Assembly: GCA_964432825.1 (NCBI GenBank)
Contig: CAYSOX010000002.1
Location: forward strand, 16,188-80,187
Source: an uncultured Lachnospiraceae bacterium
Lineage (GTDB): Bacteria > Bacillota > Clostridia > Christensenellales > UBA1242
Reading direction: 5' to 3'
Length of the DNA stretch: 64,000 nt
Below the pieces are notes generated by a model, which worked only from the letters and a program-made list of their open reading frames with translations, searched no databases and was not told the DNA's origin. Both the position numbers and the translations under genes were made by a program. Positions 2,241 through 64,000 of the stretch are shown here, one piece after another (the stretch's first letter is position 1; each line of letters begins with the position of its first letter).

Positions 2241-2250
2241 ATAGGTGTAT

Positions 2251-3651
2251 ATGAGCAAACAAAATACATTTGACACTTCTTCTGAGCCGGATTTTGTTAA
2301 TATTTGGGAAGAGGCAAAAAGTTATCTTCAATCAAAAATCACCGCTTTTGAATTTGATATGTGGATAAAAGGGCTAGAACCCTTAATGATTAAAGATAAT
2401 TGCTTAATTTTAGAATCAAAAACGCAAGGCAATAAAGCCGTTGTTATGAAAAAAGCGGATATTATTGAAGATGCACTTAAAAAAGTTTCTAGAGTTGTAA
2501 CCAAATTTAACATTTTTGTTGAGAACGAAGAAGAATATTTAGAATTAAAAAAAGAAAAAGAGGATGTCGATAAAGGATTTGACCTTCCAAAAAAAGCCCA
2601 AAAACGCACTTCTTTTGCATTTAATCCTAGATTCACCTTTGATAACTATGTTATAGGTCCATCCAATGAGTTTACTGTAGCAGCGGCGAAAGCGGTTGCA
2701 GCACGCCCTGGAACAAATTATAACCCCTTATTTATTTATGGCGGTGTAGGACTTGGAAAAACTCATCTTTTGCATGCAATTGGCAATGCAATTTGCGAGT
2801 TACATCCAGAATTAAATGTAGTTTATGTAACAATTGAAGAGTTTACAAACGAATTTATTGAAACGGTTAAACAAAATGAACTAAGTTTTAATATTGGTTT
2901 TAGAAACAAATATCGAACAGCCGATGTCTTAATTATTGATGATATTCAGTCAATTATTGGCAAAAATCGTGTTCAAGAGGAGTTTTTCCACACATTTAAT
3001 GCACTAAAAAGCCAAAATAAGCAAATTGTGTTAAGTTCGGATAGACCACCAAAAGAGTTTAAAACTTTACTTGAAGACCGAATAGTTAGCCGTTTTGAAG
3101 ATAGTCTTTTCACCGATATTGGAATACCTGAAATTGAAACTCGAATTGCAATTTTGAAGAAAAAGTGCTATATGGATAGACAAGTTGTTGACGATGACGC
3201 ATTATATTACATTGCTGAAGGAATGACTTCTAATGTCCGTGAACTTGAAGGCTTTTTATCTAGATGTGTATTCTATGCCGGGCTCCTTAAAAAGCCAAAA
3301 GTTACCTTAGAAATTGCAAAAGAAGCCTTAAAAAACTACATAACAGCAAAAAAAGTGACTTATGATAGCGATAAAATAATTGAAAAAGTGTGTTCGTACT
3401 TTGAAGTTAGTAAAAATCAACTTTTAGGCAAGGATCGTCGCAAAGAACTTTCTTATGCTAGGCAAATTGCAATGTACCTACTTGACGAATTGATGAATAT
3501 GCCGTATACTTCTATTGGTAAGATTTTCGGAAAAGACCATGCTACCGTAATTTACTGTAAAAATAAGGTAAGTTCTGAACTTGAAACCAATAAATTATTG
3601 GAAGTCCAAATTAAAGATTTGAAAGGTCTTTGCGGAGCCAATGTTGAATAG
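2251..3651 (+). CDS. dnaA: Chromosomal replication initiator DnaA
   Basis: Walker A GGVGLGKTHLLHAIG, the AAA+ core, and a C-terminal DNA-binding domain (ARQIAMYL..SIGKIFG.DHATV). I prefer the ATG at 2251 (AGG 5 nt upstream) to the GTG at 2245 in the ORF track. Confidence 0.97.
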   Translation: MSKQNTFDTSSEPDFVNIWEEAKSYLQSKITAFEFDMWIKGLEPLMIKDNCLILESKTQGNKAVVMKKADIIEDALKKVSRVVTKFNIFVENEEEYLELKKEKEDVDKGFDLPKKAQKRTSFAFNPRFTFDNYVIGPSNEFTVAAAKAVAARPGTNYNPLFIYGGVGLGKTHLLHAIGNAICELHPELNVVYVTIEEFTNEFIETVKQNELSFNIGFRNKYRTADVLIIDDIQSIIGKNRVQEEFFHTFNALKSQNKQIVLSSDRPPKEFKTLLEDRIVSRFEDSLFTDIGIPEIETRIAILKKKCYMDRQVVDDDALYYIAEGMTSNVRELEGFLSRCVFYAGLLKKPKVTLEIAKEALKNYITAKKVTYDSDKIIEKVCSYFEVSKNQLLGKDRRKELSYARQIAMYLLDELMNMPYTSIGKIFGKDHATVIYCKNKVSSELETNKLLEVQIKDLKGLCGANVE

Positions 3652-26766: not shown

Positions 26767-27819
26767 TTATCTATGTAAAATGTTATAAATTCGGTCTAAG
26801 TCGTCTTTTGAAAAATATTCTATAATAATTTTCCCTTTGCGGTCGGTTCCTTGAATGGTTGCTTTGGTTGAGAAAATGCGTTGCAATTGTGCGGAAAAAT
26901 CTTGCAATTCCAAACTTTGAACATAGGTTGCTTTACGCTTGCGGGCTTCGGTTAAGTTGGACATATTTTGGATGTATTTTTCCAACTCTCTAACACTAGC
27001 CTTGCTTTGCACAGCCATTAAAGCCGTTTTTAATTGAAGTTCGCGGTCCTCTATTCCGACTAAAATTTTTCCGTGACCAGCAGACAACTCGCCACGCTCG
27101 ATCATTTTAACAATTTCAGGGCGAAGTGCCAAAAGTCTTAGGGTGTTTGTGACTGCCGTTCGGCTTTTTCCGATTTTTTCGGCAATTTCTTCTTGGGTTA
27201 GGTTAAACCTTTCCACAAGTTCACGAATTGCGAAAGCCGATTCAATTGGGTTTAAATCTTCTCTTTGAAGGTTTTCAATTAAAGATATTTCGGCAATTTC
27301 TTGTTCGGTGTAACGCTTTATGATTGCAGGAATGGTTTTAAGCCCTGCAAGTTTGCTAGCCCTAAAACGCCTTTCACCCGAAACTATCATATAGCGGTCG
27401 CCATTTTTAACCAAAATGATTGGTTGAATAACTCCGTGTGCTTTAATGCTTTGAGCAAGTTCGTTTAGTGCACCTTCATTAAAATTTTTACGCGGTTGAC
27501 TTAAATTTCGGTCAATTAAAGCAAGAGGAATTTCGCGTGGGGTTGGGTCGCCGGTTGGAACTTCAACGATTTTCTCGACAATCTTTTCAACGGGTTTTTC
27601 AACGATTTTCTCGACGATTTTTTCAACTGGCTTCTCGACGATTTTCTCGACGATTTTTTCTACCGGTTTTTCAACAATCTTTTCAACAACCTTGGTTTCA
27701 ACAATCTTTTCAGGTTCGTTTTTGTCGTTTGTTTTCTTTTTTGGGGTAAGTGTTAAGTCTTCCGGCTCATCGTCAAGCCCTCCAAAAAGTGAATCTAAAC
27801 CTCTTCCGAGTCTTGCCAT
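26767..27819 (-). CDS. parB: Chromosome partitioning protein ParB/Spo0J
   Basis: N-terminal LGRGLDSLFG, the ParB box SQPRKNF..GVIQPIIL..GERRFRA, and an HTH (EIAEKIGKSRTAVTNTLRLL). Confidence 0.93.
   Translation of the reverse strand: MARLGRGLDSLFGGLDDEPEDLTLTPKKKTNDKNEPEKIVETKVVEKIVEKPVEKIVEKIVEKPVEKIVEKIVEKPVEKIVEKIVEVPTGDPTPREIPLALIDRNLSQPRKNFNEGALNELAQSIKAHGVIQPIILVKNGDRYMIVSGERRFRASKLAGLKTIPAIIKRYTEQEIAEISLIENLQREDLNPIESAFAIRELVERFNLTQEEIAEKIGKSRTAVTNTLRLLALRPEIVKMIERGELSAGHGKILVGIEDRELQLKTALMAVQSKASVRELEKYIQNMSNLTEARKRKATYVQSLELQDFSAQLQRIFSTKATIQGTDRKGKIIIEYFSKDDLDRIYNILHR
27558..27715 (-). repeat. In-frame tandem repeat (12/36-nt period) encoding (VEKI/VEKP)n in the ParB N-terminal linker
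   Basis: The protein reads VVEKIVEKPVEKIVEKIVEKPVEKIVEKIVEKPVEKIVEKIVEV. In the DNA, GATTTTCTCGAC and GATTTTTTCAAC units repeat. Confidence 0.85.
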
Positions 27820-27825
27820 TTTCTG

Positions 27826-28623
27826 CTAGCCCTCCTTTTTTCCTGATTTTTTATATTTTATCCCATTTTTTGCTAGGATTTCTTCGGCTAAACACATATA
27901 ACTTTTTGCGCCAACGCAAGATTTATCGTATAAACAAATTGGTAGCCCGTGGCTTGGTGCTTCTGCTAAACGGATGTTACGCGGTATGGTTGTTTCATAA
28001 ACACTGTTTGTAAAGTGTTTTTTAATTTCAGCGGCAACTTGTTGACCTAAACTAGATCGCTTGTCTTTCATTGTTAGTAAAACGCCTTCAATTTGAATAT
28101 TTGGGTTAAGTTTTTTCTTGATTAATCTTATTGTGTTCATAAGTTGGCTTAATCCTTCTAGTGCAAAAAATTCACATTGGATTGGTATTAATACCGAATC
28201 GGCACTAGTTAAAGCATTAATAGTCAAAAGCCCTAATGATGGCGGACAGTCAATTGTTATAAAATCATAACTATCACGAACCTTATCTAAAAGCCTTTTA
28301 ATGATTTTTTCACGAGATTCCATATAAACCATTTCAACTTCAGCGCCGGCGAGTTCGTTGTTGGCGGGCAAAATATCAAATCCTTCAACGGGGGTATGCT
28401 GAATAACTTCATCTATACTAGCCTCCCCAACTATTAAATCATAAACCGATTTCATTTCGGTGTTTTTTCTAACCCCAACACCACTGCTGGCATTTCCTTG
28501 AGGGTCAATATCTATAAGCAAAACCTTTTTGCCAAGGTTTGCAAGTGACGCGGAAGTGTTTACGCAACTGGTTGTTTTTCCTACGCCACCCTTTTGATTT
28601 GCAAATGCGATTATTTTTCCCAT
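27826..28623 (-). CDS. parA: Chromosome partitioning ATPase ParA/Soj
   Basis: Deviant Walker A, NQKGGVGKTT. 265 aa. Directly upstream of parB. Confidence 0.95.
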   Translation of the reverse strand: MGKIIAFANQKGGVGKTTSCVNTSASLANLGKKVLLIDIDPQGNASSGVGVRKNTEMKSVYDLIVGEASIDEVIQHTPVEGFDILPANNELAGAEVEMVYMESREKIIKRLLDKVRDSYDFITIDCPPSLGLLTINALTSADSVLIPIQCEFFALEGLSQLMNTIRLIKKKLNPNIQIEGVLLTMKDKRSSLGQQVAAEIKKHFTNSVYETTIPRNIRLAEAPSHGLPICLYDKSCVGAKSYMCLAEEILAKNGIKYKKSGKKEG

Positions 28624-32340: not shown

Positions 32341-32356
32341 TGTTTCACGTGAAACA
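32341..32356. promoter_or_regulatory. parS: parS site, perfect 16-mer TGTTTCACGTGAAACA
   Basis: Exact match to the palindromic parS consensus bound by chromosomal ParB/Spo0J. Confidence 0.9.
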
Positions 32357-32383
32357 TTTTGTTCTGAGACGACAACTTACTTG

Positions 32384-32399
32384 TGTTTCACGCGAAACA
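32384..32399. promoter_or_regulatory. parS: parS site with 1 mismatch (TGTTTCACGCGAAACA)
   Basis: 15 of 16 positions match the consensus. It lies 43 bp from the first site. Confidence 0.8.
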
Positions 32400-32672
32400 A
32401 TTTGGCGGGTTCTTGTAGGTATGTGACAATTAAAAGGCTTAAAAGTATCAGGTTGGATATTGCTTTAATGTTTATGTTGGGTTCGTTTACCCATGGCCGA
32501 AAGAGGGCTTATTTATTAGTTACCTTTCATATGGAGTTTTTATTTAATTAAAATTATCCCATATCCCCTACCTTTGGTTGTTTCGTTACAGAATGGCTTA
32601 CTGGGGCATTTTCGCTAATTTAAATTAAACCCAAAGGGCTTTAAGATGCATTTAGTATTGTATTTAAGTAAA

Positions 32673-32688
32673 TGTTTCACGTGAAACA
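32673..32688. promoter_or_regulatory. parS: parS site, perfect 16-mer
   Basis: TGTTTCACGTGAAACA with the palindrome extended by flanking AA..TT. A left half-site (TGTTTCACG) follows at 32716. Confidence 0.9.
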
Positions 32689-32995
32689 TTTTGCATATTT
32701 GTTGGTAAATAAAGGTGTTTCACGATTGGATTTACCTTTTAAAATAAGCGATTTGCTGTGCGAGTAAGCGGTTTAGTGTAAATGTTTACATTGTATATAT
32801 AGATAATGTTATTGATTTATTTGTAGCAAGATATTTATTATTGTAAGACTTATAACCATTAGAGGAATTGGTTAATATGTAGCAAATTGTTAAAAAGTAT
32901 TTTAATAAGCCAACAAAAAAAGTTATTAAGCAATATTAGATTTTGCAAATTAGGTGAATTGTGAAACAATAGCAAATAAGTTAAGCAAAAGCCAA

Positions 32996-33011
32996 TGTTT
33001 CACGTGAAACA
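32996..33011. promoter_or_regulatory. parS: parS site, perfect 16-mer
   Basis: TGTTTCACGTGAAACA. A right half-site, GTGAAACA, lies at 32961-32968. Confidence 0.9.
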
Positions 33012-33273
33012 TTGGCTTTTGATGTGTAAAGTAGTTTAAATGAATAAATGTATAAATTGATAAATAAATAACAGCAAGCAATTTTCAGTTTAAAAACCAT
33101 CTTGTTAAAAAGCATATTTAAAAAATATGTGGCATATATTGTATTCGAAATAAAATGCGACAAATTAAACAAAAATGTTATGATAAAACCATAAATACAA
33201 AAAACAAAGAATGTGGCTTATAAAATTATGCCCAAAAGTGAAACATCTAACCAATAAAAGAATTTAGTAAAAA

Positions 33274-33289
33274 TGTTTCACGTGAAAAA
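33274..33289. promoter_or_regulatory. parS: parS site with 1 mismatch (TGTTTCACGTGAAAAA)
   Basis: 15 of 16 positions match. A right half-site, GTGAAACA, lies at 33238-33245. Confidence 0.75.
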
Positions 33290-33540
33290 CTAGTTTATTT
33301 AAAATTTAAAAACTGAAAAAGCGAAGTGTGAGATGTGCCCAAAATTGAAGCAAACAAAAAGCAATTTAAACAATAAAATCTTAAACAAAAAATTTAAAAA
33401 GTATTAAATTATTAAAAAATGCAATGAAGTGCCAGATATCAAAAAGTTGAATTTTAACAATTAAATATTGATTGCCAAATAAATAGTTTTTAACAAAAGT
33501 TGAACATTTGTTAAAAGCCAAAAATTATAATATTCCAAAA

Positions 33541-33556
33541 TGTTTCCCGTGAAAAA
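33541..33556. promoter_or_regulatory. parS: Degenerate parS-like site with 2 mismatches (TGTTTCCCGTGAAAAA)
   Basis: 14 of 16 positions match. It is the last member of the cluster. Confidence 0.55.
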
Positions 33557-51325: not shown

Positions 51326-51366
51326 TATTGCCGACAGCAAAATGCTGTCGGCATATTGGTTTTTAT
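51326..51366 (+). terminator. Intrinsic terminator after asnS
   Basis: A 10-bp GC-rich stem, TGCCGACAGC (51329-51338) with GCTGTCGGCA (51344-51353), followed by TATTGGTTTTT. Confidence 0.7.
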
Positions 51367-51374
51367 TTTAATAT

Positions 51375-51680
51375 TCCGCCCGACATTTGCGGACGGGCGG
51401 AACGAATTTTCCGTATCTTTGTTCATCTTTTCGGTAAAATATAAAAGGAATAGGTTTTTCTATAATATATTCTTTACTTATAAACAAAACCAACATCTTA
51501 TGCATTTCCACTTTAGTGAGTTATACTAGTAGATTTGCTTGAATTTTGAGAATAACACACCCAAAACAGATTCCCGATCTAGGTGACCCTGTCGGGGTTC
51601 TGTTTTGGGTGTGTTAACTCAAAAGGCAAGTAAAGATACGGACGACCATTTCCGCTCATCCGGTAAAGGTCAAGCGGAGT
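51375..51680. repeat. Structured GC-rich modular repeat, copy A
   Basis: Alpha module at 51375-51440: hairpin CCGCCCG..CGGGCGG followed by TCCGTATCTTTGTTCATCTTTTCGGTAAAAT. A long hairpin at about 51546-51622 with a perfect 15-bp core, ACACACCCAAAACAG/CTGTTTTGGGTGTGT. An inverted beta module at 51618-51680. The reverse complement of 51530-51645 matches 63660-63775 at about 90% when aligned by eye. Confidence 0.8.
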
Positions 51681-51740
51681 CTCACTTATAATCGATGCTG
51701 TAATCTTTTTGTAATTGCTCCAACTGGGCAATTGCCAAAA

Positions 51741-52415
51741 TTACTTCGTATAATAATCGGTGTCGTAATCTCTATTAAAGTGCTTTTGATATAATTCTTT
51801 TAATAATTTTTGACTAGTTTCAGAAACTTTAGGGTCGGAAGGGGTCGAAAAAACTCTAGATGAAGGTGGCAAATTTATTCCGTGGATACGCTTATAAATG
51901 TCAATAGAAGATTCGGTTGGATGAATCATTCTCTCCATTCTAATCACTTCAATTTCGGCATTTTTCGTTTTTTCGGCATTTTCAATTTTTGCCTTTTCAA
52001 GGGCAATTTCGTTTATATATGCACGCATAATTTTTTCGGATAATTGTGTTAGTTGTTTAGAATTTCCTACGGGTTCATTTAAAATTTTTAATATTTCTTC
52101 ATCAGAAAAATAATTTTCGTTGGGATTGCTTTTAGAAATTAAAATCCGCCAAGATTTTGGAATTTCATCAAAATATGAGTTTTCCATAATGTGTTTAAAA
52201 GCGGTGCTAGGGTTATAAATGCGGACAAATTGCAAGTGTTTGTTTAAAAAGAAAAAATCTTCATCATACTCATAATTATGCTCAATCTTTTTAAAATCGG
52301 GCAATCTTATAATCAATTGATTATCCGTGGTTTTGTAGGGAAGAATAAATGTTTTTCCTTCAAGTTCAAAGCACGCCCATTTTATATCTTTAAATCTTAA
52401 AACTTTTTGTTTCAT
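51741..52415 (-). CDS. Hypothetical protein
   Basis: RBS GGGGGC. 224 aa. No recognisable motif. Confidence 0.6.
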   Translation of the reverse strand: MKQKVLRFKDIKWACFELEGKTFILPYKTTDNQLIIRLPDFKKIEHNYEYDEDFFFLNKHLQFVRIYNPSTAFKHIMENSYFDEIPKSWRILISKSNPNENYFSDEEILKILNEPVGNSKQLTQLSEKIMRAYINEIALEKAKIENAEKTKNAEIEVIRMERMIHPTESSIDIYKRIHGINLPPSSRVFSTPSDPKVSETSQKLLKELYQKHFNRDYDTDYYTK

Positions 52416-52717: not shown

Positions 52718-53353
52718 ATGAAAAAATTTTTTAAAGAATTTAAAGAATTTATCAGCCGTGGCAATATTGTAGATATGGCTGTCGGTGTTATTGTCGGCGG
52801 TGCATTCAGCACAATCGTAACCGCATTAACAAACAAAATCATTATGCCTTTTATTAACTGGATTCTTTCTGCTGGTGGAGAGGGTGAAAATGGTTTAGAA
52901 AAAGCCTTCACCTTTTTAAGAAAAGTGTATGATGAAAACGGTGCAGTTGACCTTGAAAAGAGTATTTACATTGATTGGGGTTCATTTATCACTGCAATTA
53001 TTAACTTCTTCTTAATAGCACTTGTTCTATTTATCATCCTAAAGGCTGTTATGAAGGCAAATGCACTTATGAAAGAAGCGGTAGACGAAGCAAAAGACAA
53101 GTCTAAGCGTGAAGAAAAACGCGAATGCCGTGCAAAAGCAAAGGCTGAGGGCAGAAAGTATAAAGAGGTTTGGGCAGAACTTCAAGCCGAAAAGAAGGCT
53201 AAAGCAGAAGAGTCTGCAAAACTAAAGGCTGAAGAAGAGGCTAAACGAAAAGCCGAAGAAGAGGCAACCAAGATTGCTACAAGCAACAAAGAAGAAGAAT
53301 TGCTTTCTCAAATTAGAGATTTGCTAGCACAACAAATCGTATATAAAAAATAA
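52718..53353 (+). CDS. mscL: Large-conductance mechanosensitive channel MscL with an inserted K/A/E-rich segment
   Basis: FKEFISRGNIVDMAVGVIVGGAF and the C-terminal EELLSQIRDLL. About 60 extra residues of KAKAE-type repeats lie before the C-terminal helix. Confidence 0.9.
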   Translation: MKKFFKEFKEFISRGNIVDMAVGVIVGGAFSTIVTALTNKIIMPFINWILSAGGEGENGLEKAFTFLRKVYDENGAVDLEKSIYIDWGSFITAIINFFLIALVLFIILKAVMKANALMKEAVDEAKDKSKREEKRECRAKAKAEGRKYKEVWAELQAEKKAKAEESAKLKAEEEAKRKAEEEATKIATSNKEEELLSQIRDLLAQQIVYKK

Positions 53354-53539
53354 GAAAAAACACTAATTGCGGTTTTTATATCCCAAAAGTTGGATAAAAA
53401 TTTAATAATAAAATTGTTTATTTTGAGTTCGGTATTTTATCGGACTCAATTTTTTTATTCGGAATTTTTTAAAACAGAATTTTCACATACTGTTACAGCC
53501 CCTCATATATTGAATTAACTTAAAAATTGGGGGAAGAGA

Positions 53540-54856
53540 ATGGCAAAATATTTCGGAACGGATGGAATCCGCGGAGAGGTGGGAAAGGTTGTTAATTTCA
53601 AACTTGCAAGAAATTTAGGGATGGCACTAATAAAATATCGACCAAATGCAAAAGTTGTCGTTGCAACGGATACTCGTCCAAGTGCGGTGGTTTTAAAACA
53701 AGGATTGTTTTTGGGATTAGTCAATGGCGGTGCTGAAGTGGTGGATGTTGGGGTGTGTCCAACGGCAGGCGTTTCCTTTTTGACTGAGGTGTTAAATGCG
53801 GATTTTGGTGTGGTGATAACAGCATCGCACAATCCTCCAATGTATAATGGCTTAAAAGTTTTTAATAAAAATGGCGAAAAATTATCGGTTGCCGAGGCTG
53901 AAGCCATAGAAATGTTGATGGAAGAAGAGTTTGAATTAAATTATTTTTCCACAGGGATTGTAAAAACGCGTTTTAAACTTGTGGAACTATATATTGAATA
54001 TTTAGTAAATGCAACAGATGTGTCGCTTGAGGGCTTAAAAATAGTTCTAGACTGTGCAAACGGCGCGGGTGTTGTGGTTGCTAAAAGGGTTTTTGAAGAT
54101 TTAGGGGCGGAAGTTTTACAGATTGGCGGAAGCACTAATGGAGTTTATATAAATGATGGGTTTGGGGCGTTGCACCCTGAATTGCTTTGCGAGGAAGTTA
54201 AAAATAGAGGTGCCAATTTGGGGCTTGCGTTTGATGGTGATGCCGACCGCCTAATTGTGGTAACATCGGACGGAAGCATTTTTAATGGTGACCAAACGCT
54301 CTTTGTTTTGGCAAACTATTTGAAAACTCAGGGAAAATTAAAGAAAAATTCGGTGGTTGTTACGTTGGAAACCAATCAAGGAATAATTATTGCCTTAAAA
54401 AATTTAGGGGTTAATTGTGAAGTTGTTTCGGTGGGTGACCATTTTGTGGTTGAAAAAATGGCAGAGAAGGGCATAAGTCTTGGCGGTGAGCGGTCGGGAC
54501 ATATCATTTTGGGTGATTTTGCAAAAACCGCCGATGGGATTTTGGCGGGTGTTATGCTTTCTGGTATTGTAAAACAAACGGGTAAAAGTTTAAACGCACT
54601 TTCGTGTAAAAGTTTACGAAAATTTGCCGAAAGAAATTATAAAACTTGTAAAGCCGACTTTATTCTAAAGAATAAAGATGTGGGTGAGGTTGTAAACTTT
54701 GTGTCAACAAGTCTGGGTGATTTTGGGCGAGTTTTGGTTCGAAAAAGTGGAACGGAGGATGTTGTTCGGGTTTTGGTGGAGTCTGAAAGTATGGCACTTG
54801 CAAATTGTTATGCCGACCAAATTTTAACTTGCATTAAAACCGTGGACGAAAAATAA
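53540..54856 (+). CDS. glmM: Phosphoglucosamine mutase
   Basis: YFGTDGIRG, the active-site ITASHNPPMYNGLK, and the metal site FDGDADR. Confidence 0.95.
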   Translation: MAKYFGTDGIRGEVGKVVNFKLARNLGMALIKYRPNAKVVVATDTRPSAVVLKQGLFLGLVNGGAEVVDVGVCPTAGVSFLTEVLNADFGVVITASHNPPMYNGLKVFNKNGEKLSVAEAEAIEMLMEEEFELNYFSTGIVKTRFKLVELYIEYLVNATDVSLEGLKIVLDCANGAGVVVAKRVFEDLGAEVLQIGGSTNGVYINDGFGALHPELLCEEVKNRGANLGLAFDGDADRLIVVTSDGSIFNGDQTLFVLANYLKTQGKLKKNSVVVTLETNQGIIIALKNLGVNCEVVSVGDHFVVEKMAEKGISLGGERSGHIILGDFAKTADGILAGVMLSGIVKQTGKSLNALSCKSLRKFAERNYKTCKADFILKNKDVGEVVNFVSTSLGDFGRVLVRKSGTEDVVRVLVESESMALANCYADQILTCIKTVDEK

Positions 54857-61263: not shown

Positions 61264-61546
61264 TAAGATTACTTTTTAGAACAGATTTTCAAAATGTAAA
61301 AAATACAAGCAAAATAGCGAAGTGGAATTTTATTTGCCAAAGCAAAGTAAGATTCGCTTCAAATAGTTGCTTGTATTTTTTTGTTAAAATTAAAAATTTT
61401 AAATAAAAACTATACATTTTTTACAACAAAACAATTTTATAAAATGTTATATAGCAATTTGATAAGCAGAAAAATTGCTAAGTTATTAAAATTTAAAAAG
61501 ACAAAAATTTAAGTTTGGTTAAGATAAAAATACAATAATAAAAGCA

Positions 61547-62770
61547 TTATATCAAACCCACTGGTATCAAGGAGTGTTGTTCATTTATTGGATGAAGTTT
61601 ATCTATTAGACATATTATCCCACCATTTTTAATATTTTTCCCCGTTTTTTCTAGAACTTTAAATTTTTCTATGTCTCGTTTATTTGGATTTGCTGAAAGT
61701 TTTACTTCAAGCGGTGTTATCCCCTCTTGGTCTTCAATTAAAATATCAATTTCATTTTGGTCTATGTCTCTATAAAAGTATATATTTCTTTCGTACGAAC
61801 TTAATGAATTTTTTATCATAAGTTGGTTCATTACAAAGTTTTCAAAGTATGCACCTGCAAGTGCAGAAGATAACAAGGTTTGTTTTGATGGAATTTTTGC
61901 AAGAAATGAACATAATCCGCTGTCAAAAAAGTATAATTTTGGGGATTTTGTAAGTCTCTTTAACCCGTTGTTAAAATAAGGTTGAACTAAATATACAATG
62001 CCTATTCCTTGTAGTAGTGCTAGCCACTCTTTTGCTGTAGGTTCGGTAATGTTTGATGCTGTTGCAAGGTTTGTATAGTTTACAATGGTTGCATTTTGAG
62101 TTGCACAAGCAGTTAAAAATTTCTTAAACTTTACGGCATCGGTAATTTTTCCCAGTTCAAAAACATCTTTCATTAAAAATGTATCCACATAAGATTTGAA
62201 ATATTCATTTCGCATTTCCTCGGTATAACCAATGGTTTTAGGCATTCCACCATTAAAAATATATTCGAACACTTCATTTAATTCTAGTGTTTTACAAAAT
62301 GTTCGGTTTTTTAGTGTGTCAAAATTAAAGTCTGAAGGTAAATCATACAAGTTTTTACTAAATTCGCAGGGTGTAAGAGAATAAATATTCATAATTCCTA
62401 CACGCCCAGCAAGGGATTCGGAAATGTTTTTCATAATTTTGTAACTTTGCGAACCGCTCAACCAAAATTCGCCCGCTTGTTGGTGATTATCCGCCATTAA
62501 TTTAATATACGAAAATAGGTTTGGTGCATATTGTATTTCGTCAATTAAAATAGGTGTAGGGTATTTTTGAAAAAATAATTTGGGGTCGTTGATTGCAAGG
62601 TCTCTATCATCCAAGTCGTCTAAAGTAACATATGTTCGGTTAAAATCTTGTGCAAAATGTTTTAGCATAGTCGTTTTCCCGACTTGTCGGGGTCCACACA
62701 CAAGAACAACTTGAAACATTGAATTTAATAATTTAAATTTTTTTTCTGCTAGTCTATTAAGATAATCCAT
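61547..62770 (-). CDS. AAA+ ATPase with a DUF4143-type C-terminal domain
   Basis: Walker A VCGPRQVGKTT and Walker B ILIDEIQ. 407 aa, typical of the COG1373-like family. Confidence 0.85.
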   Translation of the reverse strand: MDYLNRLAEKKFKLLNSMFQVVLVCGPRQVGKTTMLKHFAQDFNRTYVTLDDLDDRDLAINDPKLFFQKYPTPILIDEIQYAPNLFSYIKLMADNHQQAGEFWLSGSQSYKIMKNISESLAGRVGIMNIYSLTPCEFSKNLYDLPSDFNFDTLKNRTFCKTLELNEVFEYIFNGGMPKTIGYTEEMRNEYFKSYVDTFLMKDVFELGKITDAVKFKKFLTACATQNATIVNYTNLATASNITEPTAKEWLALLQGIGIVYLVQPYFNNGLKRLTKSPKLYFFDSGLCSFLAKIPSKQTLLSSALAGAYFENFVMNQLMIKNSLSSYERNIYFYRDIDQNEIDILIEDQEGITPLEVKLSANPNKRDIEKFKVLEKTGKNIKNGGIICLIDKLHPINEQHSLIPVGLI

Positions 62771-63526: not shown

Positions 63527-64000
63527 TTCCGCCCCGCCGAATAGAAAGGTTCCGCTCGACATTTACCGGATGGGCGGAAGTGATTGTTCGTATCTTTGTT
63601 CATCTTTTCGGTAAAATTTAATATCCCGCCCGTCTAAACCGAACGGGCGGAACAAATTGTCCGTATCTTTGCTTGCCTTTTGAGTTAAAACGCCCAAAAC
63701 AGAACCCCGACAGGGTAACCTAGTCGGGAGCCTGTGTTGGGTGTTTTATTCTCAAAATTCAAGCGAACCTACTGGAAAGTGTCACAGCGGGAGAAAAGTT
63801 TAAATGTTAAAGTTTTGATGCCCTATATTAAATTTTAGGGCAACCTATTCCTTTTAATTTCCCTCGAAAATTTAAACAAATCTACTAGGGTAATTTTCTA
63901 TATATGGCAAGGTGGTGGTGATTTGTTTTTGAATATATAAAATTGCACCACAAAATTGTGGTGCAATGTAGGGCGGTTTACAACCGCCCCCGCCGAACCT
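63527..64000. repeat. Structured GC-rich modular repeat, copy B (inverted relative to copy A; runs to the window edge)
   Basis: Alpha module at 63551-63618 and beta module at 63625-63687, in tandem. A long hairpin at about 63677-63760. Further GC hairpins follow: TTGCACCACA/TGTGGTGCAA at about 63943-63967 and GGGCGG..CCGCCC at about 63971-63989. The string CCGCCCC(C)GCCGAA occurs at both 63529 and 63985. Confidence 0.8.

Follow-up and report, generated by a model that had tools for sequence, protein, structure and literature searches.

Two intergenic spaces in a 64,000-nucleotide stretch of DNA from an uncultured gut bacterium (the window, meaning the whole stretch that was analysed) contain GC-rich blocks full of hairpins, and the question raised by them is whether they are structured RNAs, copies of a mobile repeat, substrates of recombination, termination signals or accidents of local duplication. 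We favour, with a probability of roughly 55%, the reading that both blocks belong to a lineage-restricted, small interspersed repeat of modular build, which is rearranged when its modules recombine and which supplies co-transcribed 3'-UTR hairpins and a terminator to the genes that it follows. The evidence supports a repeat family whose hairpins are selected; how many copies lie outside the window, how they spread and what their RNA does are what we infer. To our knowledge, nothing of the kind has been described from an uncultured gut lineage with a genome of ~1 Mb and 31% GC.

The window, with a G+C content of ~31%, begins at the chromosomal origin, where an AT-rich repeat region precedes dnaA (2245-3651) and dnaN. 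Further on come jag, yidC, mnmE, mnmG, ssb, parB/parA and ftsH, and the ribosome-binding sites of the window genes are strong AGGAGG sites. The AT-rich region (1500-2000), which consists of 12-nt-period repeats directly upstream of dnaA and dnaN, is probably oriC, and GC skew is positive over the remainder of the window. A parS-like cluster (32341-33556), ~4-5 kb from parB/parA (26767-28623), comprises six sites that fit TGTTNCACGTGAAACA, three of them exactly, two with a single mismatch and one with two, at a spacing of ~40-330 bp, where 0.24 matches would be expected by chance. The N-terminus of ParB (27563-27699 in the minus-strand gene 26767-27819) is a tandem four-residue repeat, VEKI/VEKP, of ~12 units, encoded by a DNA repeat that again has a 12-nt period. 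The nearest relatives of this DNA are human-gut metagenome contigs of at most 1.2 Mb, one of them from NCBI assembly GCA_964317885.1, and the best match to a named protein is at 57% identity, to a 'Clostridia bacterium' MAG. These matches point to a Firmicutes-like, uncultured gut bacterium with a small genome as the host.

The first block, element A (51374-51679), lies between the terminator of asnS, a gene whose identity is supported by NCBIfam, and orf224 (51741-52415, minus strand), which is convergent with asnS. The latter gene is restricted to the clade of the source organism and no domain was recognised in it: Pfam, NCBIfam and PADLOC gave no match, PHROG gave only a weak kinase match, and no HUH motif was seen on reading its sequence, on which grounds orf224 was rejected as a candidate transposase. 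The second block, element B (63527-63997), follows dcd. An AAA_14/DUF4143 ATPase gene nearby (61547-62770, minus strand) has a match (E=5e-101) to PDC-S01, a candidate defence family in PADLOC, and is missing from a sister species (S2, ~91% ANI), so that an accessory gene adjoins element B. Between this gene and a gene for 146 aa lies an inverted repeat (61298-61381) with 40-nt arms, 4 nt between them and 70% complementarity; one contig from the Logan assemblies (L061) terminates ~60 nt past it. Right of element B, just past the end of the window, a related contig (L007, 2440-2850) continues with a 400-nt non-coding stretch. The CACCAC hairpin of element B together with a T-run reads as a minus-strand terminator, so that the element may face a convergent minus-strand transcript or small gene that has escaped annotation.

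The features of both elements are collected in Table 1. An earlier note on this DNA, made from the letters alone, had described element A as a 300-bp element of three parts, namely an alpha hairpin followed by a conserved sequence, a long hairpin and an inverted beta module, and had mentioned a second copy. All of these parts were found where the note had placed them, and its second copy was recovered as element B, whose core is homologous to that of A and reversed (137 nt at 86% identity, E=5e-41).

Table 1. Features of elements A and B and of their immediate borders, in window coordinates.
Feature	Position	Strand	Sequence and remarks
asnS intrinsic terminator	51329-51353	+	GCCGACAGC-AAAA-GCTGTCGGC and T-run; called by terminator scan; outside the repeat, left boundary
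Alpha-module H hairpin	51374-51402	+	TTCCGCCCG-N11-CGGGCGGAA; covariance-model match 51371-51441, 92 bits
Box1	51410-51440	+	TCCGTATCTTTGTTCATCTTTTCGGTAAAAT; 29/29 nt same as box1 of mod1 in B
Conserved block TAAAAGGAATAGGTT	51442-51456	+	Identical, reversed, in element B at 63842-63856
Core spacer, weakly conserved	51457-51528	+	From alignment of A with the reverse complement of B
Long palindrome of A, 111 nt	51529-51639		Box2' (51529-51550), central hairpin (51553-51616), inverted box2
Beta-module box2	51614-51642	-	TCCGTATCTTTACTTGCCTTTTGAGTTAA on minus strand; covariance-model match 51611-51682 (-), 79.9 bits
Beta-module H hairpin	51650-51679	-	CCGCTTG-N12-TGAGCGG on minus strand
Relic of older orf224 3' end	51680-51706	-	AGATTACAGCATCGATTATAAGTGAGA; abuts beta H; matches true orf224 3' end and stop codon of contig L053
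GC motif TTCCGCCCCGCCGAA	63527-63541	+	Left end of B, directly after dcd stop; kept in S2
Module mod1	63550-63617	+	H 63550-63579 and box1 63587-63617; covariance-model match, 86.6 bits
Module mod2	63623-63688	+	H 63626-63650 and box2 63660-63688; 81.2 bits; tandem, 73 nt after mod1
Long palindrome of B	63661-63773		Box2, central hairpin 63687-63747, apex GGTAACC, box2' 63751-63772
Inverted left half of core	63774-63885	-	Spacer, AACCTATTCCTTTTA block 63842-63856, hairpin-less box1' 63857-63885
Gamma hairpin	63943-63966		TTGCACCAC-N6-GTGGTGCAA, then TGTA
Gamma GC hairpin and motif	63971-63989, 63984-63997		GGGCGG-N7-CCGCCC; motif CCGCCCCCGCCGAA

The two elements share a collinear core of ~270 nt, at sites that are 12 kb apart and in opposite orientation, in the order box1, TAAAAGGAATAGGTT block, spacer (~70 nt in element A), 111-nt palindrome, box2 and H, a GC hairpin of 7-9 bp. 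Each H module is built from such a hairpin with a 10-12 nt loop, a linker of 7-9 nt and a conserved box of ~30 nt; the other building blocks are hairpin-less box variants, the 111-nt palindrome with its box-variant arms, and the CACCAC hairpin with a GC-rich tail (gamma). The number of modules differs between the copies: A is arranged as H-box1, palindrome and box2-H, whereas B has mod1 and mod2 in tandem and then the palindrome, so that it has no H before its box1' and gains mod1 as an extra tandem module. In element A, the alpha module (51374-51440) and the beta module (51614-51679) are inverted copies of each other, 72% identical over 47 nt, and form inverted terminal repeats. The long hairpin, which the earlier note had put at ~75 nt with a 15-bp core, does have the GGTGACC apex described for it; its size was underestimated, and it is the centre of a 111-nt palindrome with an 18-bp perfect helix (51553-51570 with 51599-51616), hairpin-less box variants as outer arms (GTAGATTTGCTTGAATTTTGAG) and a folding energy of -65.1 (+) and -55.4 (-) kcal/mol.

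In element B, the plus strand reads UUUUAUUCUC directly after the long palindrome. The inverted left half of its core is defined by the inverted-repeat pairs I2, I3 and I18 together with the alignment of A and B, and its gamma part spans 63943-63997, with the CACCAC hairpin followed by the GC hairpin. The GC motif of the left end has a near-repeat at 63984-63997, and a CCGCCCC(C)GCCGAA motif is thereby present at both ends of the element. Boxes are far more conserved than hairpins: box1 is the same in A and B at 29/29 positions, while H and linker agree at ~75%. A covariance model of H+box recognises exactly four modules in the whole window (64 kb), with scores of 80-92 bits against 17 bits for the next candidate, and in a related strain it finds no further module in the 6.8 kb to the right of B.

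Several other identities were tried for these sequences and rejected. Small protein genes within the boxes were dismissed, as the frames are not conserved beyond the box and have no ribosome-binding site. A Bacteroidota-type promoter (TAnnTTTG) in the boxes was dropped because the nearby genes have strong AGGAGG Shine-Dalgarno sites, which are untypical of Bacteroidota. Likewise, the 73-nt spacing of mod1 and mod2 could suggest a CRISPR-like array, a candidate that was dropped because the 'spacers' are homologous to each other. Integron attC sites (RYYYAAC ... GTTRRRY) were rejected since GTTAACT departs from GTTRRRY, housekeeping genes surround the elements and the scanned window ORFs include no integrase.

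Compared with shuffles, element A as a whole folds strongly (-118 to -121 kcal/mol, z = -9.9 and -11.3), with alpha paired to beta in the minimum-free-energy folds, and the folding z-scores are strong on both strands. The earlier note had argued from compensatory changes that the structure is under selection, and the changes that it named are correct, both the series C-G, C-G, U-G and U-A at the fifth pair of the module stems and the single change from C-G to A-U in the long hairpin. They carry little weight, however. In the H helix, 95% of the cells of nine distinct module sequences are paired, compared with 34-51% in slid controls, and double changes occur in 3/9 pairs, a result that is equalled by 24-40 of 500 shuffles; in the long hairpin (46 pairs, one double change, four unpaired cells) 345 of 500 shuffles do as well. 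On these counts, the compensatory argument is real but weak. A further observation concerns the G-U cells of the 7-bp core of H: seven fall on the module-sense strand, against one that the other strand would form, a hint that a single strand is selected, either as RNA or as single-stranded DNA. Alternative pairings are present among the TTCCG and CGGAA words.

Strains at 97-100% identity carry both elements at the same sites. In a strain at 97.7%, element A differs by 18 mismatches and 4 gap columns in 316, ~3x background, and these changes concentrate in the hairpins, where 8 of ~28 nt are altered in the beta H, and leave the boxes untouched; element B of this strain has 4 changes in 474, or ~1/3 of background. 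The clustered replacement in the beta H looks like patch conversion from a paralog or another family member. Hairpins turn over rapidly and their pairing is kept.

In S2, site A is occupied by an unrelated filler of 731 nt in which only GGTAAAATATAAAAG is recognisable; two tandem units of ~80 nt are found at this site (contig L052, 3780-3960). Of element B, the first module alone is retained in S2, where the 91 nt from the GC motif through mod1 (63527-63617) are unchanged in contig L054 next to flanking genes that are ~91% identical. The box1 sequence of element A is also unchanged, both in the strains and in S2. Past mod1, the S2 sequence continues like element A (GTAAAAGGAATAGA), with an A-type junction in which box1 is followed by TAAAAGGAATAG and with a partial copy of the TAAAAGGAATAGGTT block after box1.

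Other relatives hold single components. Contig L053, from a species whose orf224 is 52% identical, carries a lone H, with no box, 4 nt past the stop codon of orf224; this H is orthologous to the beta H and is followed by a hairpin that resembles the asnS terminator. Lineage-specific tandem G-rich units of ~45 nt lie upstream of orf224 on this contig (930-1180). The 91% ABC-F species (L048) has no H at this place. Each end of its contig carries a CACCAC hairpin and GC-rich modules like those that close element B on the right, and one of these sets lies behind tilS; the gamma hairpin with TGTAGGGCGG is present at this other locus, after tilS and at a contig end, in L048 and L050 of the 91% species. 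The 82% relative has mscL immediately after asnS and lacks orf224, and no modules were found there in 10 loci (~180 kb of largely overlapping sequence). The elements are restricted to a narrow clade.

Gene order differs between close species where the repeats sit (L048 917-3281 against window 52718-54856; also L062-L071), with the mscL-pgm block inverted in the 91% species and the miaB-HIT-S21 block upstream of asnS in the 82% species. Duplicated relics of the 3' ends of orf224 and dcd adjoin the repeats (window 51680-51706; L054 16397-16450; L072 13580-13666), and the copy found as a relic in strain L072 and S2 serves as the true dcd end of the window strain. A DGR-like origin of these duplicated gene ends was rejected, there being no reverse transcriptase and the repeats being short.

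Two loci were seen directly, in ~71 kb of the source genome, and the evidence for others comes from independent Logan contigs, which end inside the elements at recurrent positions. In one sample, L002 ends at window position 51608 and L061 starts 12 nt before it; Logan contigs are assembled with k=31, and an overlap of 12 nt therefore implies that an exact stretch of 48 nt (CTAGGTGACC...CTCAAAAGG) occurs in a second context. L004, from another sample, ends at the same base as L002, L006 and L010 end exactly at the point where A and B diverge, and four S2 contigs all stop at one base. Such recurrent ends favour additional copies in the same genome, beyond the window, and mixtures of strains may partly explain the breaks.

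Searches for known families and for homologs returned nothing that would name the elements. Rfam has no family for them at either gathering or permissive thresholds: only a tRNA reaches threshold in the window, and the best sub-threshold matches in the elements are microRNA-like hairpin matches of 27 bits. The structured ncRNA family proposed in the earlier note, which covariation supports weakly, hence corresponds to no known family. A box pattern that matches all four window modules gave chance matches only, none with an H hairpin, in GTDB representatives (2), JGI metagenomes (34) and IMG/VR (1), in scans so stringent that diverged relatives in other taxa could have escaped them. Three other patterns gave zero matches in IMG/VR, blastn of element A gave nothing among 72,556 plasmids or 50,697 phages, and the 50-aa translation of the repeat, used as a probe for spurious ORF calls at other copies, yielded no candidates. 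The earlier note had regarded confinement to two loci, with no homologs elsewhere, as telling against its proposal; half of this is what we found, in that the collections searched hold no homologs outside the species cluster of the source, but copies exist in strains and sister species.

Both copies lie in 3'-3' intergenic spaces, directly behind stop codons, and every module has the same sense as the gene closest upstream of it. A U-rich tract comes after the palindrome, read in the direction of orf224 in A (minus strand, UGUGUUAUUCUC) and of dcd in B (plus strand, UGUUUUAUUCUC); no U-tract follows H, and a terminator scan of the elements called inner sub-hairpins only. The termination signal that the earlier note had listed among its candidates is plausible for the long palindrome, judging from these tracts. 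Because asnS already has a canonical terminator of its own, the alpha module is not needed there. A promoter scan of the elements found nothing above chance. The elements would be co-transcribed with their upstream genes, with the H hairpins as putative 3'-UTR stem-loops in the sense of orf224 and dcd and with the long palindrome and its U-rich tail as a SPRITE-like, possibly bidirectional, terminator.

With regard to spread, target-site duplications, for which the earlier note had suggested looking, are present at neither site: the flanks of A (...TTTTAATAT / TCTCACTTAT...) contain no direct repeat, and B is flanked only by an imperfect GC motif of 13/14 nt that belongs to the element itself. 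The note's remark that no transposase is nearby is consistent with Pfam scans of 28 of the larger window ORFs (ORFs at 36.7-40.4 kb and several short ones were left out), which revealed no transposase, RAYT, recombinase, integrase or invertase. No inversion polymorphism was found either, as the informative contigs, which come from samples of several strains, all show a single orientation per site (site A: L001-L005, L061; site B: L006-L010, L072). Of the candidates in the earlier note, a MITE- or PATE-like element comes closest, as mosaic copies, shuffled modules, presence/absence differences and assembly breaks agree with it, while the lack of a target-site duplication does not. Recombination or template switching between modules may have built and reshuffled the copies, probably with patch conversion from other copies, and the copies would not have spread by classical cut-and-paste transposition with target duplication; a putative enzyme acting in trans could take the place of recombination between modules. 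The lack of a target-site duplication, a transposase, a promoter and a second orientation, together with features like those of SPRITE, BOX and REP, favours a modular interspersed repeat. Counting against it are that two loci only were seen directly, that neither a target-site duplication nor, among the scanned window ORFs, a transposase, RAYT or recombinase was found, that asnS has its own terminator, that H has no U-tract behind it, and that the long hairpin covaries at chance level.

We consider it unlikely that the elements are functional structured RNAs, either cis-acting 3'-UTR elements or small RNA genes, and thus two functional paralogs instead of a selfish repeat, with the boxes selected as RNA sequence and the H and long hairpins selected as RNA structure. 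Such a function would account for the invariance of box1 and of the 91 nt after dcd across a species pair at 91% ANI, for the ~3x slower change of element B relative to background, for the gathering of H G-U pairs on one strand, for the alternative TTCCG/CGGAA pairings and for folding z-scores that are strong on both strands. However, element A changes faster than background, the order and orientation of modules differ between the copies, covariation in the long hairpin is at chance level, neither an Rfam family nor a convincing promoter was found, and the 82% relative lacks the elements, as does site A of the sister species, where other sequence has taken their place. A little less probable again are local DNA accidents, neither mobile nor functional, in which an ancestral terminator-like H gave rise to nested duplications, both inverted and tandem, by fold-back or template switching together with illegitimate recombination in the course of allele exchange. 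It is difficult to obtain in this way one core in opposite orientations at unlinked sites separated by 12 kb, a gamma module at a different locus in another species, boxes strongly conserved across species, or the further copies implied by recurrent contig ends; the lone H at the same place in L053, the relic 3' ends of orf224 and dcd that abut the elements, the nesting of inverted repeats (alpha with beta, box2' with box2) and the direct observation of two loci only are nevertheless what local accidents would produce.

Two further explanations assign the H+box a part in recombination or binding. It may be the recognition site of a putative strand-specific hairpin-binding enzyme or of an RNA-binding protein, which we judge improbable; a divergent HUH/RAYT-like or other single-strand DNA recombinase is one possibility for the enzyme. 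If this were true, the elements would represent a new mobile or recombination system guided by hairpins, which would also be responsible for the changes in gene order among sister species, and the invariant 91-nt module after dcd would be an active or domesticated copy. Highly improbable, in our view, is a substrate of site-specific recombination such as an invertible switch, with H+box as inverted sites that flank a ~200-nt segment containing a TATAAT/TAAAAT element. The inverted alpha and beta repeats do flank the core, whose orientation relative to the leading H+box1 is opposite in A and B, the A-type junction is seen at the B site of S2, and synteny breakpoints coincide with the repeats. 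Nonetheless, all contigs that run past a box show one orientation per site, the inverted units are only ~72% identical, no invertase or integrase occurs among the scanned window ORFs, the promoter scan gave nothing above chance, and the elements lie at gene 3' ends instead of upstream of a regulated gene.

If the modular interspersed repeat is the right reading, it adds a small repeat family without a sequence match in the collections searched. A repeat family alone opens no long-standing question; the unusual points are the invariant boxes beside fast-turning hairpins and the co-location with synteny breakpoints. For annotation, the elements are structured intergenic blocks of 300-470 nt that belong to no known RNA family, break short-read assemblies and coincide with synteny breakpoints. 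For evolutionary study, with A changing 3x faster and B 3x slower than background and with boxes invariant across species, they offer a compact system in which selfish spread, gene conversion and selection on RNA structure could be told apart.

Comparison with known systems places the elements among several classes of small repeats. REP, BIME and REPIN sequences are GC-rich imperfect palindromes that lie after stop codons and in 3'-3' regions, as single copies, in tandem or in inverted pairs that fold into a ~110-nt hairpin; the REP unit is an imperfect palindrome of 20-40 nt preceded by a conserved GTAG and is associated with RAYT (HUH Y1) transposases. The elements resemble them in having GC hairpins behind stops, in single, tandem and inverted ~110-nt arrangements, that turn over with pairing kept. 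Unlike REP, H starts with TTCCGC and has no 5' GTAG, a motif that occurs only in the hairpin-less box variants (51529; minus strand 63769-63772 and 63882-63885), and four modules in 64 kb are far below the typical density of REP. PATEs derived from IS200/IS605 have subterminal hairpins and no target-site duplications, as seen here, and strand-specific recognition of single-stranded DNA is possible for both. The hairpins of TnpA are short-looped and bulged; in contrast, the stems here are perfect with loops of 10-12 nt, the hairpins of A are inverted and not direct, and no tnpA/tnpB is nearby.

MITEs such as RUP and the Correia elements, whose features are summarised in PMC3049150, share with the elements a length below 500 bp, a lack of coding capacity, terminal inverted repeats that pair, and presence/absence between close relatives. 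They differ in that the elements have no target-site duplication, inverted ends of only ~72% identity, copies that diverge by module rearrangement and no known matching IS. The pneumococcal BOX repeat is a composite of boxA-boxB(n)-boxC that is intergenic, restricted to a species cluster and co-transcribed with its neighbours, and for which target-site duplications have been reported (Croucher et al. 2011, PMC3049150). GC-rich hairpin modules in a 31% GC genome and the lack of a visible target-site duplication set the elements apart from BOX; by description, and not by comparison with BOX sequence, they are alike in being composite, intergenic and restricted, in varying the number of internal modules (one H module by the palindrome in A, two in B), and in having complementary terminal modules that pair in the fold. 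SPRITE has a duplex of 18 bp, which exceeds that of ordinary terminators in length, with a U-rich tract behind it, and is enriched where convergent genes end (PMC3049150). The duplex here differs from it, with ~46 pairs and internal loops within a larger modular element that is not AT-rich relative to the genome; the long palindrome nevertheless has a perfect centre of 18 bp and a U-rich tail and lies between convergent units, as SPRITE does. Although the family has no sequence match, it is, rather than a known RNA gene, of the same sort as the small interspersed repeats represented by BOX/SPRITE and REP.
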